From a phage: a stretch of DNA of 64,000 nt. The notes beneath the pieces are model-generated. The model searched no databases. It worked only from the letters and a program-made list of their open reading frames with translations, and had not been told where the DNA came from. A program made the position numbers and the translations under genes. The stretch is from sequence record PZ452583.1; one strand, written 5' to 3'. Below are positions 29,519-39,938 of the stretch, one piece after another; within the stretch, counting starts at the first letter, position 1, and every line of letters begins with the position of its first letter.

Positions 29519-29992
29519 TTATTTGAACGATTTAACGTACTGAATAGAACCCTTACTATTCACAAAGGCAATTTTACCATTTTTATTATACATGGTAGCA
29601 GTACGCTGATAACCATAGGTTTGTTTACCAGATTGATAACCAACTAATGCAAAATTATCTTCACCCATTTTATTCTGTTTAGCGCGAATGCGTTCATGAC
29701 CATGTGCCATAAGAACCTTAGCATCACCAGTTGCAATGGATCGACGAGTTTTTTCATCTTCAACTGTATTAACAAAGTCGTCAAATGAATCAAATTTAGC
29801 ATGAGATTTATTATACAGTTTTCCATCTACTGCATAATTATATCCTTGTACATCCATCTCAACTTCTGTACCATCATCCAATACAGCAGTGATTTTTTGA
29901 CCTTTTTTAAATTTCAAAAGATCAGTAAAAGATTCAGCAATAATTTGAGAATTAATAGCTGCTTCAGTAATAAATTCTTGATATGTTTTCAT
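29519..29992 (-). CDS. Internal-protein-like capsid-packaged protein, 157 aa
   Basis: N-terminus MKTYQEFITEA is the T4 IP capsid-targeting sequence with a gp21-protease-type cleavage motif; 9 bp downstream of denV. Confidence 0.7.
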   Translation of the reverse strand: MKTYQEFITEAAINSQIIAESFTDLLKFKKGQKITAVLDDGTEVEMDVQGYNYAVDGKLYNKSHAKFDSFDDFVNTVEDEKTRRSIATGDAKVLMAHGHERIRAKQNKMGEDNFALVGYQSGKQTYGYQRTATMYNKNGKIAFVNSKGSIQYVKSFK

Positions 29993-33257: not shown

Positions 33258-33277
33258 TCCTACTTACTCCAAGTAAT

Positions 33278-33293
33278 AGGGGCCGAAGCCCCT
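33278..33293 (-). other. Tetraloop hairpin (AGGGGC-UUCG-GCCCCU) between ORFs
   Basis: 6-bp stem read in sequence; no U-run. Confidence 0.4.
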
Positions 33294-33298
33294 TATCA

Positions 33299-34355: not shown

Positions 34356-34619
34356 TTATTTCATATTATTGAAATATTCTTCAGCAATTTCATCATTATC
34401 ATGATAAACTTTAGAAGACAGTTTAACATAACTTTCAGCAGTGAACATGTTAATCACAACCTTTACAGTATACCACTGACCGTCTTCATTACCCATTACT
34501 GCGTAAGTTTCAAACATCGGATGATCAGGACCGATAACTTTAATATCATTCACTGTACGACCAAAATCTTCTGAAACACATTTCATAAAGAAGTTGAACA
34601 GTTCACCATAATTATCCAT
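34356..34619 (-). CDS. Hypothetical protein, 87 aa
   Basis: ORF-track 5' extension is promoter read-through; ATG 34619 with SD GGAG. Confidence 0.5.
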   Translation of the reverse strand: MDNYGELFNFFMKCVSEDFGRTVNDIKVIGPDHPMFETYAVMGNEDGQWYTVKVVINMFTAESYVKLSSKVYHDNDEIAEEYFNNMK

Positions 34620-34662: not shown

Positions 34663-34692
34663 ATAGTACCATGGAAGGACAAGGATGTAAAC
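34663..34692 (-). promoter_or_regulatory. T4-type early promoter (GTTTAC, 18 bp, TACTAT)
   Basis: Read on minus strand; same downstream ACAACTATCAACTAC block as the 17967 and 19406 copies. Confidence 0.6.
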
Positions 34693-34824
34693 CGTTTTGT
34701 GAAAAAAATTTTTAAAAAGTTTTGGGGAATTCTAGGGCAGGGAGGGGAAATCAAAGGATAGGATAATATATTATAAAGGGTAGAAACTAAATGATGTCTA
34801 GAGAGGCCTGGAAAGGCCTAGATA

Positions 34825-34853
34825 CCAAAAAGCCCCAACCTTTCGGCTAGGGC
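34825..34853 (-). terminator. Rho-independent terminator (AGCCCUA-loop-UGGGGCU then UUUUU) downstream of the IP-like gene
   Basis: Stem and U-run read in sequence; part of a ~36-bp direct repeat with 35377-35412. Confidence 0.65.
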
Positions 34854-34861
34854 TAAGAATG

Positions 34862-35335
34862 TTATTTGATTTGTTTAGCAGACCAAATGCGGTCTTTAAT
34901 AATTTTTTGGATGTCTTCAACATACTCAAGAGAGTGAGCATGTGGGTTATCTTTGAAACTATAAGCACGAGCTAGCTTTTGGCCTTCAGTTTTGATTACT
35001 AAAAGCTCTTTAAGGATAGCTTCATATTTGGAGATAATTCCTTTAACAATATTTTTCTCTTGTGCGACTTTAGGATCTGCTTTAGGAGCAGGTTTACCTG
35101 AAGCCTTTGCAAAAGCAGCGCCAGTAGCAACTAAACTTTTCCAGGCCATACTAACAGCATTCCCCGTAAATCCTTCTGCTTTCATGTCGCGAGCAAATTG
35201 GAATCGTGATTCATCAGAAGCATCTTTATAGGAATATTTACCCGCTGCAATGGCTGCTTTTGCGACAGCTTGAATTTCGGTGCTAGACGCTTCATTTAAC
35301 ACCGCTTCATTTAAAAATTGAGCATATGATTTCAT
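34862..35335 (-). CDS. Internal-protein-like capsid-packaged protein, 157 aa, in a repeat-flanked cassette
   Basis: N-terminus MKSYAQFLNEA resembles the IP capsid-targeting sequence; own late promoter; near-identical terminator hairpins on both sides. Confidence 0.65.
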   Translation of the reverse strand: MKSYAQFLNEAVLNEASSTEIQAVAKAAIAAGKYSYKDASDESRFQFARDMKAEGFTGNAVSMAWKSLVATGAAFAKASGKPAPKADPKVAQEKNIVKGIISKYEAILKELLVIKTEGQKLARAYSFKDNPHAHSLEYVEDIQKIIKDRIWSAKQIK

Positions 35336-35371
35336 CTTATTTCCTGTTTTAATTTGTAGATTTAATATACT

Positions 35372-35379
35372 TATTTATA
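35372..35379 (-). promoter_or_regulatory. Late promoter TATAAATA for the IP-like gene
   Basis: Exact TATAAATA on minus strand about 37 nt upstream of ATG 35335. Confidence 0.6.
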
Positions 35380-35380
35380 C

Positions 35381-35409
35381 TAAAAAGCCCCAACCTTTCG
35401 GCTGGGGCT
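35381..35409 (-). terminator. Rho-independent terminator (AGCCCCA-loop-UGGGGCU then UUUUU) upstream of the IP-like gene
   Basis: 7-bp stem and U-run read in sequence; near-identical to the 34825-34853 copy. Confidence 0.65.
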
Positions 35410-35439
35410 AAGCCTTGCGGCAACCTTGTCGGGGTTCCA

Positions 35440-35610
35440 CCTGCTAAGGCAAGTGTTTGTACGAAACGCCGGGATTCGAACCCGGTTATCAAGCAGTTGA
35501 CGCTACTCAATATTTTTAAAAGGCCATATCTCGACCATATCCGAACGTTCCGTCAAAAACGCTACTCGGCTTACGGCAAAGATATTTCCTCGAATCGATA
35601 ATTCGGTGCG
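35440..35610 (-). ncRNA. Candidate structured small RNA with a tRNA-like T-arm (possible counterpart of T4 stable RNAs rnaC/rnaD); boundaries approximate
   Basis: About 300 nt without an ORF; contains CCGGG-TTCGAAT-CCCGG followed by a 7-nt strand complementary to upstream AGAAACG; no canonical cloverleaf could be drawn. Confidence 0.3.
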
Positions 35611-35720
35611 CCGTTTCTGCTGTGATATAAGGGGACATTAACAAAACATAAAGATTTATTAATGCCAGTCCTTAAACAGGGAACATCAGTCCGACGACTT
35701 ACCGGTAGCGACCCGGTTTC

Positions 35721-36071
35721 TTAATATTCTTTTAAAGCATCAATCTGTTCACGGCGTTTACGCCATAAATCAATTGCTTCATACGCAGATTCAGCATTTC
35801 GAATTAGCCGGCATTTATGTAAAGACTTATGATTTTGATATTGTGTAGATAATGGAATTGTATCTAAAAGGTCTTTACGATCAAAGTATTCGTAACCATC
35901 TAAACCAAATGAACGATTTTTGAGAAATTGCCAATGGCCAAATTCATTTTCAACATAAACATAATCTGCATGCTGATAAAGTAAATTAATTACACGTTCA
36001 GAAATAACAGTATCATTATGATTAAAATAGAATGTTAAATCATGAACTACTAAATAAACATTACCTTTCAT
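35721..36071 (-). CDS. Hypothetical protein, 116 aa
   Basis: ATG verified; between tRNA-Arg and the candidate small RNA. Confidence 0.55.
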   Translation of the reverse strand: MKGNVYLVVHDLTFYFNHNDTVISERVINLLYQHADYVYVENEFGHWQFLKNRSFGLDGYEYFDRKDLLDTIPLSTQYQNHKSLHKCRLIRNAESAYEAIDLWRKRREQIDALKEY

Positions 36072-36089: not shown

Positions 36090-36165
36090 TGGTCGAGGCA
36101 GTAGGGATCGAACCTACGACCTAGGACTTAGAAGGTCCTTGCTCTTCCTTCTGAGCTATGCCCCG
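36090..36165 (-). tRNA. tRNA-Arg (anticodon TCT)
   Basis: Hand-folded cloverleaf, 76 nt, CCA encoded; anticodon loop CTTCTAA; T-loop GGTTCGATCC. Confidence 0.85.
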
Positions 36166-36169
36166 TAAT

Positions 36170-36245
36170 TGGGGTGACCGATGGGAGTCGAACCCATGAC
36201 TACGAGAATCACAATCTCGAGTTCTACCAACTGAACTACGGCCAC
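36170..36245 (-). tRNA. tRNA-His (anticodon GTG); no encoded G(-1)
   Basis: Hand-folded cloverleaf, 76 nt; anticodon loop TTGTGAT; CCA encoded. Confidence 0.8.
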
Positions 36246-36359
36246 ATTAATATCTACTCCAACAATCATGATGTCTTCACACGAAATTAAGAGAAGAGTG
36301 ATCAGTTAAACCCTTATAATCGCGTCAAGTAGATATTAATGTGACAGTTGTCACAAATT

Positions 36360-36434
36360 TGGCGGACGTGATAGGATTCGAACCTATAACCAATCGCTTA
36401 ACAGGCGATCGCTCTGCCATTGAGCTACACATCC
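36360..36434 (-). tRNA. tRNA-Asn (anticodon GTT)
   Basis: Hand-folded cloverleaf, 75 nt; anticodon loop CTGTTAA; CCA encoded. Confidence 0.8.
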
Positions 36435-36438
36435 AAAT

Positions 36439-36525
36439 TGGTGGGGAGTGGTGGAGTCGAACCACCCGAGTCGCAATGACAATGAATTTACAGTCCACAC
36501 CGCTACCTCTACGGGATAACTCCCC
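36439..36525 (-). tRNA. tRNA-Tyr (anticodon GTA), long variable arm
   Basis: 87 nt; acceptor GGGGAGT/ACTCCCC; anticodon loop CTGTAAA; CCA encoded. Confidence 0.75.
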
Positions 36526-36537
36526 TAATTCATAATT

Positions 36538-36612
36538 TGGTGGCCCTGGGTGGAATTGAACCACCATCTGGCGATTATGAGTCGCTTGCTTGAACCTTCC
36601 AGCTACAGGGCC
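36538..36612 (-). tRNA. tRNA with anticodon CAT (elongator Met, or Ile if lysidine-modified as in T4 tRNA-Ile)
   Basis: 75 nt; acceptor GGCCCTG/CAGGGCC; anticodon loop CTCATAA; CCA encoded. Confidence 0.75.
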
Positions 36613-36613
36613 T

Positions 36614-36689
36614 TGGTGCTGATTGACGGAATCGAACCGCCGACCTTCTCATTACAAGTGAGTTGCTCTACCTACTGAGCTAAATCAGC
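36614..36689 (-). tRNA. tRNA-Thr (anticodon TGT)
   Basis: 76 nt; anticodon loop CTTGTAA; CCA encoded. Confidence 0.85.
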
Positions 36690-36694
36690 AAAAC

Positions 36695-36784
36695 TGGCGG
36701 AGGCGATAGGATTTGAACCTATGAGTCGCCGGAGCGACTGCCGGTTTTCAAGACCGGTGCATTAAACCACTCTGCCACGCCTCC
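36695..36784 (-). tRNA. tRNA-Ser (anticodon TGA), long variable arm
   Basis: 90 nt; anticodon stem-loop CCGGT-CTTGAAA-ACCGG; CCA encoded. Confidence 0.85.
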
Positions 36785-36786
36785 AG

Positions 36787-36860
36787 TCTCCATACAAGGA
36801 TTTGAACCTTGGACCTCCTGATCCCAAATCAGGCGCTCTACCAAACTGAGCTACACGGAG
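36787..36860 (-). tRNA. tRNA-Pro (anticodon TGG); 3' CCA not encoded, 2 nt from tRNA-Ser
   Basis: 74 nt; anticodon loop TTTGGGA; Pro-Ser dimeric arrangement as in T4. Confidence 0.8.
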
Positions 36861-36870
36861 TAAATTAAAT

Positions 36871-36944
<74 letters not shown>

Positions 36945-36949
36945 AAATT

Positions 36950-37036
36950 TGGTGCGAGAAGTGGGACTCGAACCCACAAGGAAATCATTCCGCAGCATTT
37001 TAAGTGCTGTGCCTTTACCAATTTGACCATTCTCGC
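36950..37036 (-). tRNA. tRNA-Leu (anticodon TAA), long variable arm
   Basis: 87 nt; anticodon stem-loop CAGCA-CTTAAAA-TGCTG; CCA encoded. Confidence 0.85.
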
Positions 37037-37042
37037 GTTATA

Positions 37043-37651
37043 TTATTTATTACGTGAAAAAGACTGTTCTATCAATTCTGGACACTTTCGTTCTATCCAT
37101 TTTCTAGCTTTTTGTGGGCTTATACCTATTATTTTAGCAGCTTTACTAACCCATCCAAATTTAGAATAATCGATTTTAACTAATTCTTCGTAAATTTCAT
37201 TAGTTAAAATCTTTTCATTAATATTTACCAGTAAATGATATAATTTGTTATCATTAGCAATTTTAATGAATCTTTTATAGTTTCCGCCTTTACTTAAACC
37301 TAATGAAGTAATTGCAGATGATATAGTAGCCGAATTTAATAATGCGTTTAAAATTTCTTCATCACTAACATTATAACGCTTTTTATTATTTTTAATATTT
37401 TTACCAGCAAAAGTATCAGTTTGCGAATGACAGTTTGGACATAATAATCTTAAATTTGATTTAAGATGATTTTTGTTATTTCCATCAATATGGTCTAATT
37501 GCAGAACAATATGCTTATTTTGCCATTTTGAAATTTTACAAATTGCACACTCATATGGAAAAATATTTTCTTTTATTATTTTGTCTTTCAGCTTTCCTGT
37601 ACTAAAATTTGGATGTTTTCCTTCAAAAATTTCAGCTAATTTAGTATCCAT
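37043..37651 (-). mobile_element. HNH homing endonuclease, 202 aa, 7 nt upstream of tRNA-Leu
   Basis: HNH core CAICKISKWQNKHIVLQLDHIDGNNKNHLKSNLRLLCPNCH plus C-terminal helix-turn-helix-like region; ORF-track start is TTG at 37675, first ATG 37651. Confidence 0.8.
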
Positions 37652-37750
37652 AATATGATTCCCAATTATTAACAAAGGCTCTCAAATAAGAACCCTTGAT
37701 GATAGAGGGTATTAATCAGTGCGGTATGAGTTAATAATAACAAATAATTC

Positions 37751-38266
37751 TTAAAGCAAATCAACCATTTTAACAGTCGGCAAAACAATTTCTTCTTCGA
37801 TATAAGCAAATTCTACATGTTCAACTACACGCAAGAAATCATATTCATAGTATTCAGAAGCATGACCAAGAATATCAATGAGGCCTTCAGATATCTTATT
37901 ACCATTCACAAAGAATAAATCAAATACACGTTCTTCATCTTCTTCGGATTTATTACCAAGGTCAACTTCTATATCAAAGACCTTTTTAATGAATTCTGGA
38001 TAAAGTTGGTCTGAGAACAGTCCTTCAACCAAATATTCATATATAAAAAGCTCTTGCTCGCTGAACAACCCATTACCACAATAACGGTCAGCTTTAGTGC
38101 TAGAATGACGACTCTTAAACTTCTTCAAAAGATATTTAAATTGTTGGAGCTCATGCTCTTCTACGCCAAACAGTGTTTTGGTTTTATAGTTATCACCATC
38201 ATTTTCCCAGGTAGTGACATCAATTACGTAACCCTTAGGAATTGTGCTGCCTAAACGAATATTCAT
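37751..38266 (-). CDS. Hypothetical acidic protein, 171 aa
   Basis: ATG verified. Confidence 0.55.
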   Translation of the reverse strand: MNIRLGSTIPKGYVIDVTTWENDGDNYKTKTLFGVEEHELQQFKYLLKKFKSRHSSTKADRYCGNGLFSEQELFIYEYLVEGLFSDQLYPEFIKKVFDIEVDLGNKSEEDEERVFDLFFVNGNKISEGLIDILGHASEYYEYDFLRVVEHVEFAYIEEEIVLPTVKMVDLL

Positions 38267-38556
38267 TTGCTCACCATATTAATGTAAGTATATTCAATAC
38301 ATTCAAGACCCAAAGGATTCTTGAAAATATCATATTCAAGAGGACCTTTTTCTGTTTCAATAAAGAAATCAAAATTTACTGTATTAAATTTACGGTCTTC
38401 CTTCACTAATTTAACTTGAGAAGATGAACGGTCAACATAAACCTTTTCAACTTCAAAACACGTTAAAACGCCATAATCATCAATCAAGGCTTTAGCCGCG
38501 TCTTGATCATATTTATATCCATTTTCAATGGATGATACTTTTGCATAAAGAATCAT
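38263..38556 (-). CDS. Hypothetical protein, 97 aa
   Basis: ORF-track start is GTG at 38562; ATG 38556 (MILYAKVSS...); its 5' end is duplicated at 38991-39016. Confidence 0.5.
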   Translation of the reverse strand: MILYAKVSSIENGYKYDQDAAKALIDDYGVLTCFEVEKVYVDRSSSQVKLVKEDRKFNTVNFDFFIETEKGPLEYDIFKNPLGLECIEYTYINMVSK

Positions 38557-38561
38557 TATCA
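38536..38561. repeat. 26-bp direct repeat, copy 1 (24/26 identical to 38991-39016); spans the start of ORF 38263..38556
   Basis: Read directly: TACTTTTGCATAAAGAATCATTATCA versus TACTTTAGCATAAAGAATCATTGTCA. Confidence 0.7.
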
Positions 38562-38939
38562 CACTCCGTAGTCTATCTTGACCAATCTACCTTTGTAGTA
38601 GCCAAAGTTCTTTGGAAAGGCATCATACTCAAAGAAATCACGGTCAAGCGTTCTACATTCATCACCATCAACATCATTATAGAGCTTTTGCAAATCAGAT
38701 TTAAAAAGCTCCTTATCCTCAACTGGCTCTGCTTTGTGCATCACAACCATGAGACCAAATCTGTTTGAGTATGCTATTGGGCATAGGTGCTTGTTATCAT
38801 ACCCCTTCCACTGACCTTCTGTAAGATTGCTGAGCATACCCTGCACGAAGTATTTCCATGTCTTGGGGATAGGGAACTTAATAGCATACTTACGTGTTAG
38901 TAGTACCCATCTGGTTCCACCCGATTTAATTAATTTCAT
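38559..38939 (-). CDS. Hypothetical protein, 126 aa, between the two 26-bp direct repeats
   Basis: ATG verified. Confidence 0.55.
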   Translation of the reverse strand: MKLIKSGGTRWVLLTRKYAIKFPIPKTWKYFVQGMLSNLTEGQWKGYDNKHLCPIAYSNRFGLMVVMHKAEPVEDKELFKSDLQKLYNDVDGDECRTLDRDFFEYDAFPKNFGYYKGRLVKIDYGV

Positions 38940-39634: not shown

Positions 39635-39690
39635 GGTAATAGTATCACTACTAAAACCCCGTGTAAACAACTTTGTGAAATTATTTTAAA
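39635..39690. repeat. Promoter-plus-stem-loop direct repeat, copy A (47/56 identical to 39966-40021), downstream flank of the IPI-like gene
   Basis: Shares GGTAATAGTATCACTAC and GTGTAAACAACTTTGTGAAATTATTTTAAA with copy B; contains early promoter 39639..39668. Confidence 0.7.
39639..39668 (-). promoter_or_regulatory. T4-type early promoter (GTTTAC, 18 bp, TACTAT)
   Basis: Read on minus strand; -10 flanked by AGTAGT/ACTACT inverted repeat. Confidence 0.6.
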
Positions 39691-39938
39691 TCTTCTAATC
39701 GTTTCTTCATCTTAGAACCATTTTTAGCGATTTCTCCTGCGTCAGAGCATAATGCTAAAAGTGCTTTAACTTTAGTTTGGTCTCCTTTAAAAGACGAAGG
39801 ATCGACTGCAGCAGCAAGTTCTTTAATACGAGAGAAAAGACGCTCAGCTTCAGCTAAAGCCATTCCAAGCTTTACTTCCATACCATGAGAAGATTCAGTG
39901 ATAATAGTTTCTGTAGCAAACTCTTTATAAGTTTTCAT
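39681..39938 (-). CDS. Internal-protein-like capsid-packaged protein, 85 aa, at the T4 ipI position
   Basis: N-terminus MKTYKEFATE matches the IP capsid-targeting consensus; adjacent to 57B; flanked by promoter-containing direct repeats. Confidence 0.65.
   Translation of the reverse strand: MKTYKEFATETIITESSHGMEVKLGMALAEAERLFSRIKELAAAVDPSSFKGDQTKVKALLALCSDAGEIAKNGSKMKKRLEDLK

Follow-up and report, generated by a model that had tools for sequence, protein, structure and literature searches.

A stretch of 64,000 nucleotides (nt) of phage DNA, sequence record PZ452583.1 and here referred to as the window, represents a T4-like (Tequatrovirus) genome, the closest records being RB51, RB68, AR1, SHBML-50-1 and BASEL phages at 96-99% identity. 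On the minus strand, between the stable-RNA gene rnaC and gene e.8, it harbors an open reading frame (ORF), 34862..35335, that encodes a precursor of 157 amino acids (aa) and 17.2 kDa, with the N-terminus MKSYAQFLNEAVLNEA and, as a longer stretch, MKSYAQFLNEAVLNEASS. A preliminary description of this DNA had pointed to the ORF as the gene of a possible internal protein (Ip), the class that is carried into the T4 head and injected with the DNA, and had placed it in a self-contained cassette flanked by terminator repeats. The features of the locus are given below, with a slash in a peptide marking a prohead-protease-type cleavage site.

34862..35335, minus strand: coding sequence, a member of family phrog_2280 and ortholog of RB32ORF132c, RB68_138 and fD1 g140
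35291..35335, minus strand: leader MKSYAQFLNE/AVLNE/A, codons 1-15, of the capsid-targeting type, with two tandem prohead-protease-type L-x-E sites
35341..35345, minus strand: Shine-Dalgarno sequence AGGAA, 5 nt ahead of the ATG (sequence read directly)
35372..35379, minus strand: TATAAATA, a motif of the T4 late-promoter type that overlaps the repeat's end and precedes the ATG by 36 nt
35377..35412, minus strand: upstream repeat copy, the terminator closing the tRNA/rnaD/rnaC unit; stem 35409-35386, followed by a T tail
34822..34857, minus strand: downstream repeat copy, the terminator ending the cassette; stem 34854-34831

The ORF is present as it had been described, and there is good reason to regard it as a gene. 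The ratio of nonsynonymous to synonymous substitution rates (dN/dS) is 0.02-0.09 in every informative pair, the Tequatrovirus and Mosigvirus alleles included (dN 0.13, dS about 1.6), and the ORF is therefore a constrained protein-coding gene. In a tblastn search, this gene, referred to as gene A, was found in 512 phage records and is near full length in 468 of them, which span four genera. As judged from these comparisons, ORF 34862..35335 is a real, conserved gene of a T4-like phage.

The two hairpins that bracket the gene are formed by a direct repeat of 36 nt, whose copies at 34822-34857 and 35377-35412 lie 555 nt apart from start to start and are 94% identical, with two mismatches. The earlier account of this repeat stands, apart from the coordinates of its first copy (34821-34856), which were shifted by a single base. 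Intrinsic terminators are called at both copies on the minus strand, each with a G/C-rich stem of 10 bp, a GAAA loop and a T tail, so that the same terminator hairpin is indeed found on each side of the gene. The folding energy is -25.2 kcal/mol (z = -3.6) for the upstream hairpin and -19.3 kcal/mol for the downstream one. With three mismatches allowed, the repeat hairpin is restricted to these two sites in the 64-kb window, against 0 expected.

The rnaC transcription unit ends at the upstream hairpin, and the TATAAATA motif stands right after the T tail of this terminator. It is intergenic and on the correct strand, just past a terminator beyond which the ORF would otherwise go untranscribed; the closest promoter of early type lies around 140 nt beyond the downstream hairpin. 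The junction between hairpin and motif is conserved also in BW-1 and RB68 and, as GGGGCTTTTTAGTATAAATA, is kept ahead of the homolog in Klebsiella Jiaodavirus KEN39, in which the surrounding DNA has diverged. Position and junction conservation together suggest that TATAAATA may act as a late promoter.

Leader, family and protein body

The N-terminus, MKSYAQFLNEA, had been likened to the capsid-targeting sequence found in T4 internal proteins, and the searches bear this out. The pattern MK[ST][YF]x[EQ]F has exactly three matches in the six-frame translation of the window, all of them at the start of ORFs, and 0 in 100 shuffles. It is common only to the ORF and to two recognized internal proteins.

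29519..29992, minus strand: Ip4, 157 aa, MKTYQEFITEA, before denV; ipII/ipIII are not at this locus
39681..39938, minus strand: Ip5, 85 aa, MKTYKEFATET, before 57B; ipI is not at this locus

On sequence grounds, the leader-bearing proteins of this phage would be these two and the product of ORF 34862..35335, none of which is shared with T4. The corresponding leader is MKTYQEFIAE/A in T4 IPII and IPIII, and MKTFKEFTSTTTPVSTITE/A in T4 IPI. Within the family of the ORF, the core of the leader is invariant: Met1, Phe7, Leu8 and the leader Glu are kept throughout an alignment that reaches 26% identity. Alleles of shorter length have the leaders MKSYAEFLTE/Q, MKTYNEFLMTE/A and MKFKEFLAE/A. The allele in the window is distinguished by Ser3, Gln6 and a duplicated LNEA, the last arising from a 5-residue duplication that produces two L-N-E/A sites, at residues 8-11 and 13-16. 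The predicted mature product has 142-147 aa and a pI of 9.5, which falls within the range of 8.8-9.65 computed for IPI*, IPII*, IPIII*, Ip4*, Ip5* and B*, the last being the product of a second gene, B, described below.

Beyond the leader, the protein contains an N-terminal domain whose motif GKYSYKDxSDESRFxFxRDMKxxGF is conserved as far as the Klebsiella and Yersinia homologs. It is followed by a linker rich in Pro and Lys and then by a long helical hairpin, the latter being more variable between genera. The AlphaFold2 model is all-helical, with a pLDDT of 71 and a pTM of 0.40.

The protein matches the phrog_2280 profile over its full length (E = 2e-60, residues 1-157), a family labeled "unknown function" to which PHROGs also assigns the product of gene B and a Klebsiella homolog. 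IPI, IPII, IPIII, Ip4 and Ip5, for their part, each have a PHROG of their own that is labeled as an internal virion or head protein. Both BLASTP and hhalign align A and B over the first 11-12 residues only, that is, over the leader, and any paralogy of the two bodies is suggested by the PHROG clustering alone.

The body was said to hold no recognizable motif, and Pfam, PADLOC, PDB profile and Foldseek searches likewise gave no useful match. The Pfam scan produced only sub-threshold noise and the PADLOC scan no matches. The sole PDB sequence profile match, to a designer PPR protein, was rejected as spurious and due to low complexity. Foldseek against a viral library returned the protein's own family alone, and a profile search run exhaustively over 1.84 billion representatives yielded 13 proteins, all from the same phage family; by these searches, the family appears confined to T4-like phages. 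Of around 130 named cluster members examined, all are "hypothetical" or "uncharacterized" with two exceptions. One is the UniRef entry of the Klebsiella homolog from phage KPKp, which is named "Internal head protein"; the other is a dioxygenase label on one member of the B cluster, which is evidently wrong. In the literature, we found no paper that names RB32ORF132c, RB69ORF148c/149c or RB14ncORF136c, and Petrov 2010 does not discuss internal proteins.

Locus states among relatives and neighboring genes

The interval between rnaC and e.8 was compared across 737 phage records that share its flanks. Four states were found.

Empty: T4, T2, T6, RB6, ACG-C40 and PST
Gene A, the gene of ORF 34862..35335: 404 records covering at least 80% of the query
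Gene B only, a 187-aa gene (RB14ncORF136c): RB14, EP01 and HY03
Genes A and B in tandem, with three hairpins: BW-1, HP3 and Mosigvirus PhAPEC2

By tblastn, gene B occurs in 165 phage records, either alone or in tandem with A, and is annotated only as hypothetical. It encodes 187 aa and lies at L003:900-1463 in RB14, L004:900-1463 in BW-1 and L005:834-1397 in PhAPEC2. Its product has the N-terminus MKTYAEFLTEAAKL and the leader MKTYAEFLTE/A, and its mature form has a pI of 9.5.

The gene is extra relative to T4, as had been proposed from gene counts. In T4, T2 and T6 a single hairpin is found with no gene between rnaC and e.8; in T4, rnaC is followed by one hairpin copy and then directly by the upstream region of e.8, with no ORF. 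A 110-nt segment spanning this T4 junction matches the window twice: T4 26-110 corresponds to 35377-35461, and T4 2-60 to 34798-34856. The overlap between the two matches, 35 nt, corresponds to the repeat, and this double match argues for the gain or loss of one repeat and a 519-nt insert through recombination inside the repeat. The T4 junction has exactly the form that a crossover between the two repeats would produce. The proposal of an exchangeable module is thus upheld by the four states and by this junction, and gain or loss of the cassette apparently takes place through homologous recombination of one hairpin repeat with the other.

The preliminary description had also raised the possibility that the repeats are ordinary terminators present at the same place in all relatives. 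This holds for one copy and not for the other: the upstream hairpin is the normal terminator of the tRNA/stable-RNA unit and follows rnaC in all relatives, whereas the second, downstream copy alone travels with the cassette.

A similar layout is found in a Klebsiella Jiaodavirus, in which tRNAs and a stable RNA are followed by a hairpin-TATAAATA junction, a 177-aa homolog (MKFKEFLAEAS), a different hairpin and an e.8-type early promoter. Since the layout is the same, the occupied state is old and spans several genera. The empty state of T4 is plausibly a deletion.

A second single-gene indel lies beside the cassette. At 35721-36071 on the minus strand, between rnaD and tRNA-Arg, there is a 116-aa ORF with no Pfam match, equivalent to RB51ncORF141c and RB68_139. 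It is not in T4, where rnaD abuts tRNA-Arg.

The minus-strand order of the wider region is 57B, Ip5, tRNA.4-.2-like genes, a 10-tRNA cluster, rnaD, rnaC and ORF 34862..35335, then e.8 through e.2, nudE, e, denV and Ip4. The immediate neighbors of the cassette are the following.

35460..35598, minus strand: homolog of rnaC (species 1 stable RNA), 97.8% identical to T4 over all 139 nt and 100% identical to RB68 rnaC
35604-35724: rnaD homolog, assigned by homology
34356..34619, minus strand: e.8 homolog, 87 aa, 96.2% identical to T4 e.8 over 264 nt
34663..34691, minus strand: sigma-70-like early promoter for e.8, TTTACA-17-TACTAT with TG, in a flank conserved with T4

Rfam holds no family for rnaC or rnaD, and both were identified by homology. 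The tRNA cluster (36090-37036, minus strand) contains 10 tRNAs versus the 8 of T4; those for His, Asn, Tyr and Met are present, and the Ile and Gln tRNAs of T4 are absent. A 24-nt inverted repeat, 36235-36258 and 36328-36351, is 88% complementary with its arms 69 nt apart, and spans the gap between tRNA-His and tRNA-Asn. A 210-aa minus-strand ORF, 37043-37675, stands directly upstream of the cluster and contains HIDGNNKNH…CPNCH, a motif of the HNH type. It matches Pfam HNH only below the threshold (17.3 bits), and its ortholog in phage fD1, g141, is annotated as an HNH endonuclease. T4 has no gene at this site and instead carries the GIY-YIG endonuclease segB inside its tRNA cluster, and the 210-aa ORF probably encodes a different homing endonuclease, one that occupies the tRNA region. 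Finally, three small ORFs (171, 99 and 126 aa) without Pfam matches lie at 37751-38939 on the minus strand, between the HNH ORF and the tRNA.3-like gene.

Role of the product and competing explanations

The best explanation of the locus, and one that we consider likely, is that ORF 34862..35335 encodes a previously unannotated T4-type Ip, in an insulated one-gene cassette at a third Ip locus, with a role against restriction. The parts of this explanation differ in strength. That the product is an Ip, with all that this would involve by way of late transcription, packaging, cleavage and injection, is highly probable. The anti-restriction role, taken separately, is a tentative proposal that we place slightly short of an even balance; the preliminary description had likewise put forward an anti-defense role as a candidate only.

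In outline, transcription of the tRNA, rnaD and rnaC genes would stop at the upstream hairpin. Late in infection, a monocistronic mRNA would be initiated from TATAAATA and terminated at the second hairpin, such that the early promoter of e.8 is left undisturbed. The leader MKSYAQFLNE would bring the precursor into the scaffolding core of the prohead, where the prohead protease (the gp21 homolog) would cut at LNE/A, after Glu10 and/or Glu15, removing 10 or 15 residues. The mature N-terminus would then be either Ala11 (AVLNEASSTEIQAVAK) or Ala16 (ASSTEIQAVAK), and the basic mature protein (around 142-147 aa, pI 9.5) would stay with the packaged DNA until it is ejected into the next host. There, its action would most likely be the binding and blocking of a modification-dependent (type IV, GmrSD/McrBC-like) nuclease that attacks DNA containing glucosylated hydroxymethylcytosine (glucosyl-hmC).

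The steps of recruitment, cleavage and ejection are proposed because a leader of around 10 residues is known to be sufficient, together with the motif tests described above. According to the account in PMC3012670, Mullaney and Black (1996) found that the 10-residue leader suffices for the packaging and processing of foreign proteins. The anti-restriction step has precedent as its sole basis: Ip1, Ip2 and Ip3 each block one distinct GmrSD variant with no cross-protection (Silas et al. 2025, PMC12373910), and Bas37_0260 inhibits McrBC (10.1101/2025.11.20.689424). As these known inhibitors share only the leader, missing homology in the body speaks neither for nor against such a role.

A more specific proposal, which is also the more speculative one, is that the interval between rnaC and e.8 constitutes a third Ip locus of the Tevenvirinae, holding 0-2 phrog_2280 cassettes, whose product neutralizes a defense not yet paired with any Ip. 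Such a defense could be a GmrSD/type IV clade that neither Ip1-3 nor Bas37_0260 blocks, or a system other than restriction. We regard this as possible but rather doubtful.

A number of observations weigh against an internal protein with an anti-restriction role. The first concerns the virion. The Yersinia phage fD1 (also phiD1) has a 157-aa ortholog, g140, that is listed as particle-associated on the basis of liquid chromatography coupled to tandem mass spectrometry (LC-MS/MS; PMC8309999 Table S3). The fD1 preparation was, however, purified by ultracentrifugation only and yielded 113-137 of the 277 phage proteins along with 672 host proteins, and it included DenV, lysozyme, NudE, thymidine kinase and an HNH endonuclease (PMC8309999). 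Because the preparation held so many non-structural and host proteins, detection of g140 weighs little as evidence of packaging; it proves expression and is compatible with packaging, which stays putative. The SH7 virion proteome, with 13 proteins, is too shallow to be informative, and the paper on fPS-90 contains no proteomics.

The second concerns the promoter and the leader. The preliminary description had credited the ORF with its own exact late promoter, and the motif is present at 35372-35379 on the correct strand. In this AT-rich window, however, TATAAATA occurs at chance frequency, with 11 copies found versus 10.5 expected, so that the exact match is not evidence on its own. The leader closely resembles that of T4 IPII and IPIII, yet differs from it at 5 of 10 positions, including a change of Glu6 to Gln. 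The third concerns the body, which in sequence and fold searches has no similarity to any characterized Ip or anti-defense protein; Foldseek against the PDB gave no match below E = 0.8, and none to IPI*, returning only generic helical hairpins. To these can be added the position of the gene, outside the classical Ip loci, and the pattern of selection, which are taken up below.

The main rival is a protein that is packaged by means of its leader but has a purely physical or structural role, such as charge neutralization, DNA condensation or help with ejection. The basic character of the protein (pI 9.5) would suit such a role, as would its predicted fold, a plain helical domain and a long helical hairpin with nothing distinctive about them. 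Selection on the gene is purifying and not diversifying, and Tequatrovirus alleles are 95-100% identical in most records, a pattern that fits a physical role somewhat better than an arms race. Nonetheless, the gene is dispensable, in that T4, T2, T6 and PST are entirely without it, and such variable presence in near-identical genomes is what host-range accessory genes typically show. Moreover, all four Ips of known function are restriction inhibitors. We therefore judge a purely physical role unlikely.

Less probable still is that the product is an unpackaged, late cytoplasmic protein, whose Ip-like N-terminus would have arisen as recombination passed a common 5' end, with the ribosome-binding site and first codons, between late accessory genes. 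Genes A and B are 76% identical in DNA over 42 nt at their 5' ends, covering the ribosome-binding site and leader, and a role as substrates of recombination at Ip loci has been proposed for conserved 5' sequences (Repoila 1994, as reported in PMC3012670, PMC12373910 and PMC4122927); the virion mass-spectrometry evidence, being unspecific, would also accommodate this explanation. Against it, the F-L-x-E core is kept in relatives at 26-38% aa identity, in which the DNA has long diverged, and its retention points to selection on the peptide beyond shared DNA. The sufficiency of the 10-residue leader for packaging foreign proteins, in the account of Mullaney and Black cited above, argues in the same direction. 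A chance ORF or pseudogene between ordinary terminators, to which the missing annotation and domain match might have pointed, is refuted by the low dN/dS, the full-length gene in 468 records, the PHROG family and the fD1 LC-MS/MS peptides.

An anti-restriction Ip at this locus would be of some consequence. Ips have recently been shown to be a main T-even countermeasure against modification-dependent restriction (PMC12373910; 10.1101/2025.11.20.689424), and only four have known targets, each blocking a single GmrSD or McrBC variant. With the family between rnaC and e.8, there seem to be a third locus and two further leader-bearing proteins, which at present carry the label "hypothetical" in hundreds of genomes of candidate therapeutic phages of E. 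coli, Shigella, Yersinia, Salmonella and Klebsiella. If the product does counter an as yet unpaired defense, it would help to set the host range of around 500-650 sequenced carrier phages. The leader motif also offers a simple annotation rule for finding more injected effectors, and now that Ip targets are being mapped the gene makes a clean and testable candidate, although a specialist would not be surprised by it.

Comparison with known systems

What is new here is a probable member of the Ip class, unannotated and widely distributed, at a new locus; the class of mechanism is already known, and no new kind of system is involved. The finding is less novel than the preliminary description implied, because this architecture was already on record in 1994 for the two classical Ip loci. 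As related in PMC3012670, PMC12373910 and PMC4122927, Repoila et al. (1994) described the two T-even Ip loci as hyper-variable and occupied by ORFs that are unrelated apart from a common leader and common regulatory flanks. Silas et al. (2025) still refer to "the two Ip loci" (PMC12373910). Phage PST, which was annotated by the Krisch laboratory with ipIII-ipVI, is in the empty state between rnaC and e.8, and this may be the reason that the locus has gone undiscussed.

In common with the classical T4-type Ips, the ORF encodes an MKTY-EF-type leader ending in L/I-x-E/A and a small, basic mature protein, and is variably present in close relatives. The bodies are mutually unrelated, and every gene comes with regulatory signals of its own at a locus that is polymorphic. 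However, the ORF is located between rnaC and e.8, and not at the ipI (between tRNA.4 and 57B) or ipII/ipIII (between denV and e) locus. We regard the classical location as a positional habit of the Ip class and not as a functional requirement. A further difference is that the body belongs to phrog_2280, of "unknown function", with both the packaging and the function of the product being putative.

The cassette also resembles the PeSL cassettes (Arbiol et al. 2010, PMC2839356; Comeau et al. 2014, PMC4122927), in which a single accessory ORF lies between repeated G/C-rich stem-loop terminators, indel breakpoints fall within the repeats and the module is transcriptionally insulated. Single ORFs are shuffled between the stem-loop terminators in the PeSL mechanism, which includes excision as mini-circles (PMC2839356, PMC4122927). 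In contrast to PeSL, which joins a stem-loop to a sigma-70-like early promoter (or to a middle promoter in PmSL), the stem-loop here is fused to a late-promoter motif. Elsewhere in the window, a short G/C hairpin, AGGGGCCGAAGCCCCT, is found at 33276-33296 between e.5 and e.6. The scan scores it as terminator-like for the plus strand, yet the intergenic gap around it belongs to the minus strand, and it is possibly another PeSL-type stem-loop.

The nearest counterpart of the cassette is that of gene B, which is not in the window. It has the same locus, leader type, pI of 9.5, terminator flanks and PHROG family, whereas only its leader aligns with A. Bas37_0260 differs in residing at the ipI locus, in its unrelated body and in having an experimentally demonstrated target. 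Yet it, too, was uncharacterized until its N-terminal signal led to its recognition as an Ip, and it occupies a variable slot that holds a different gene in T4.

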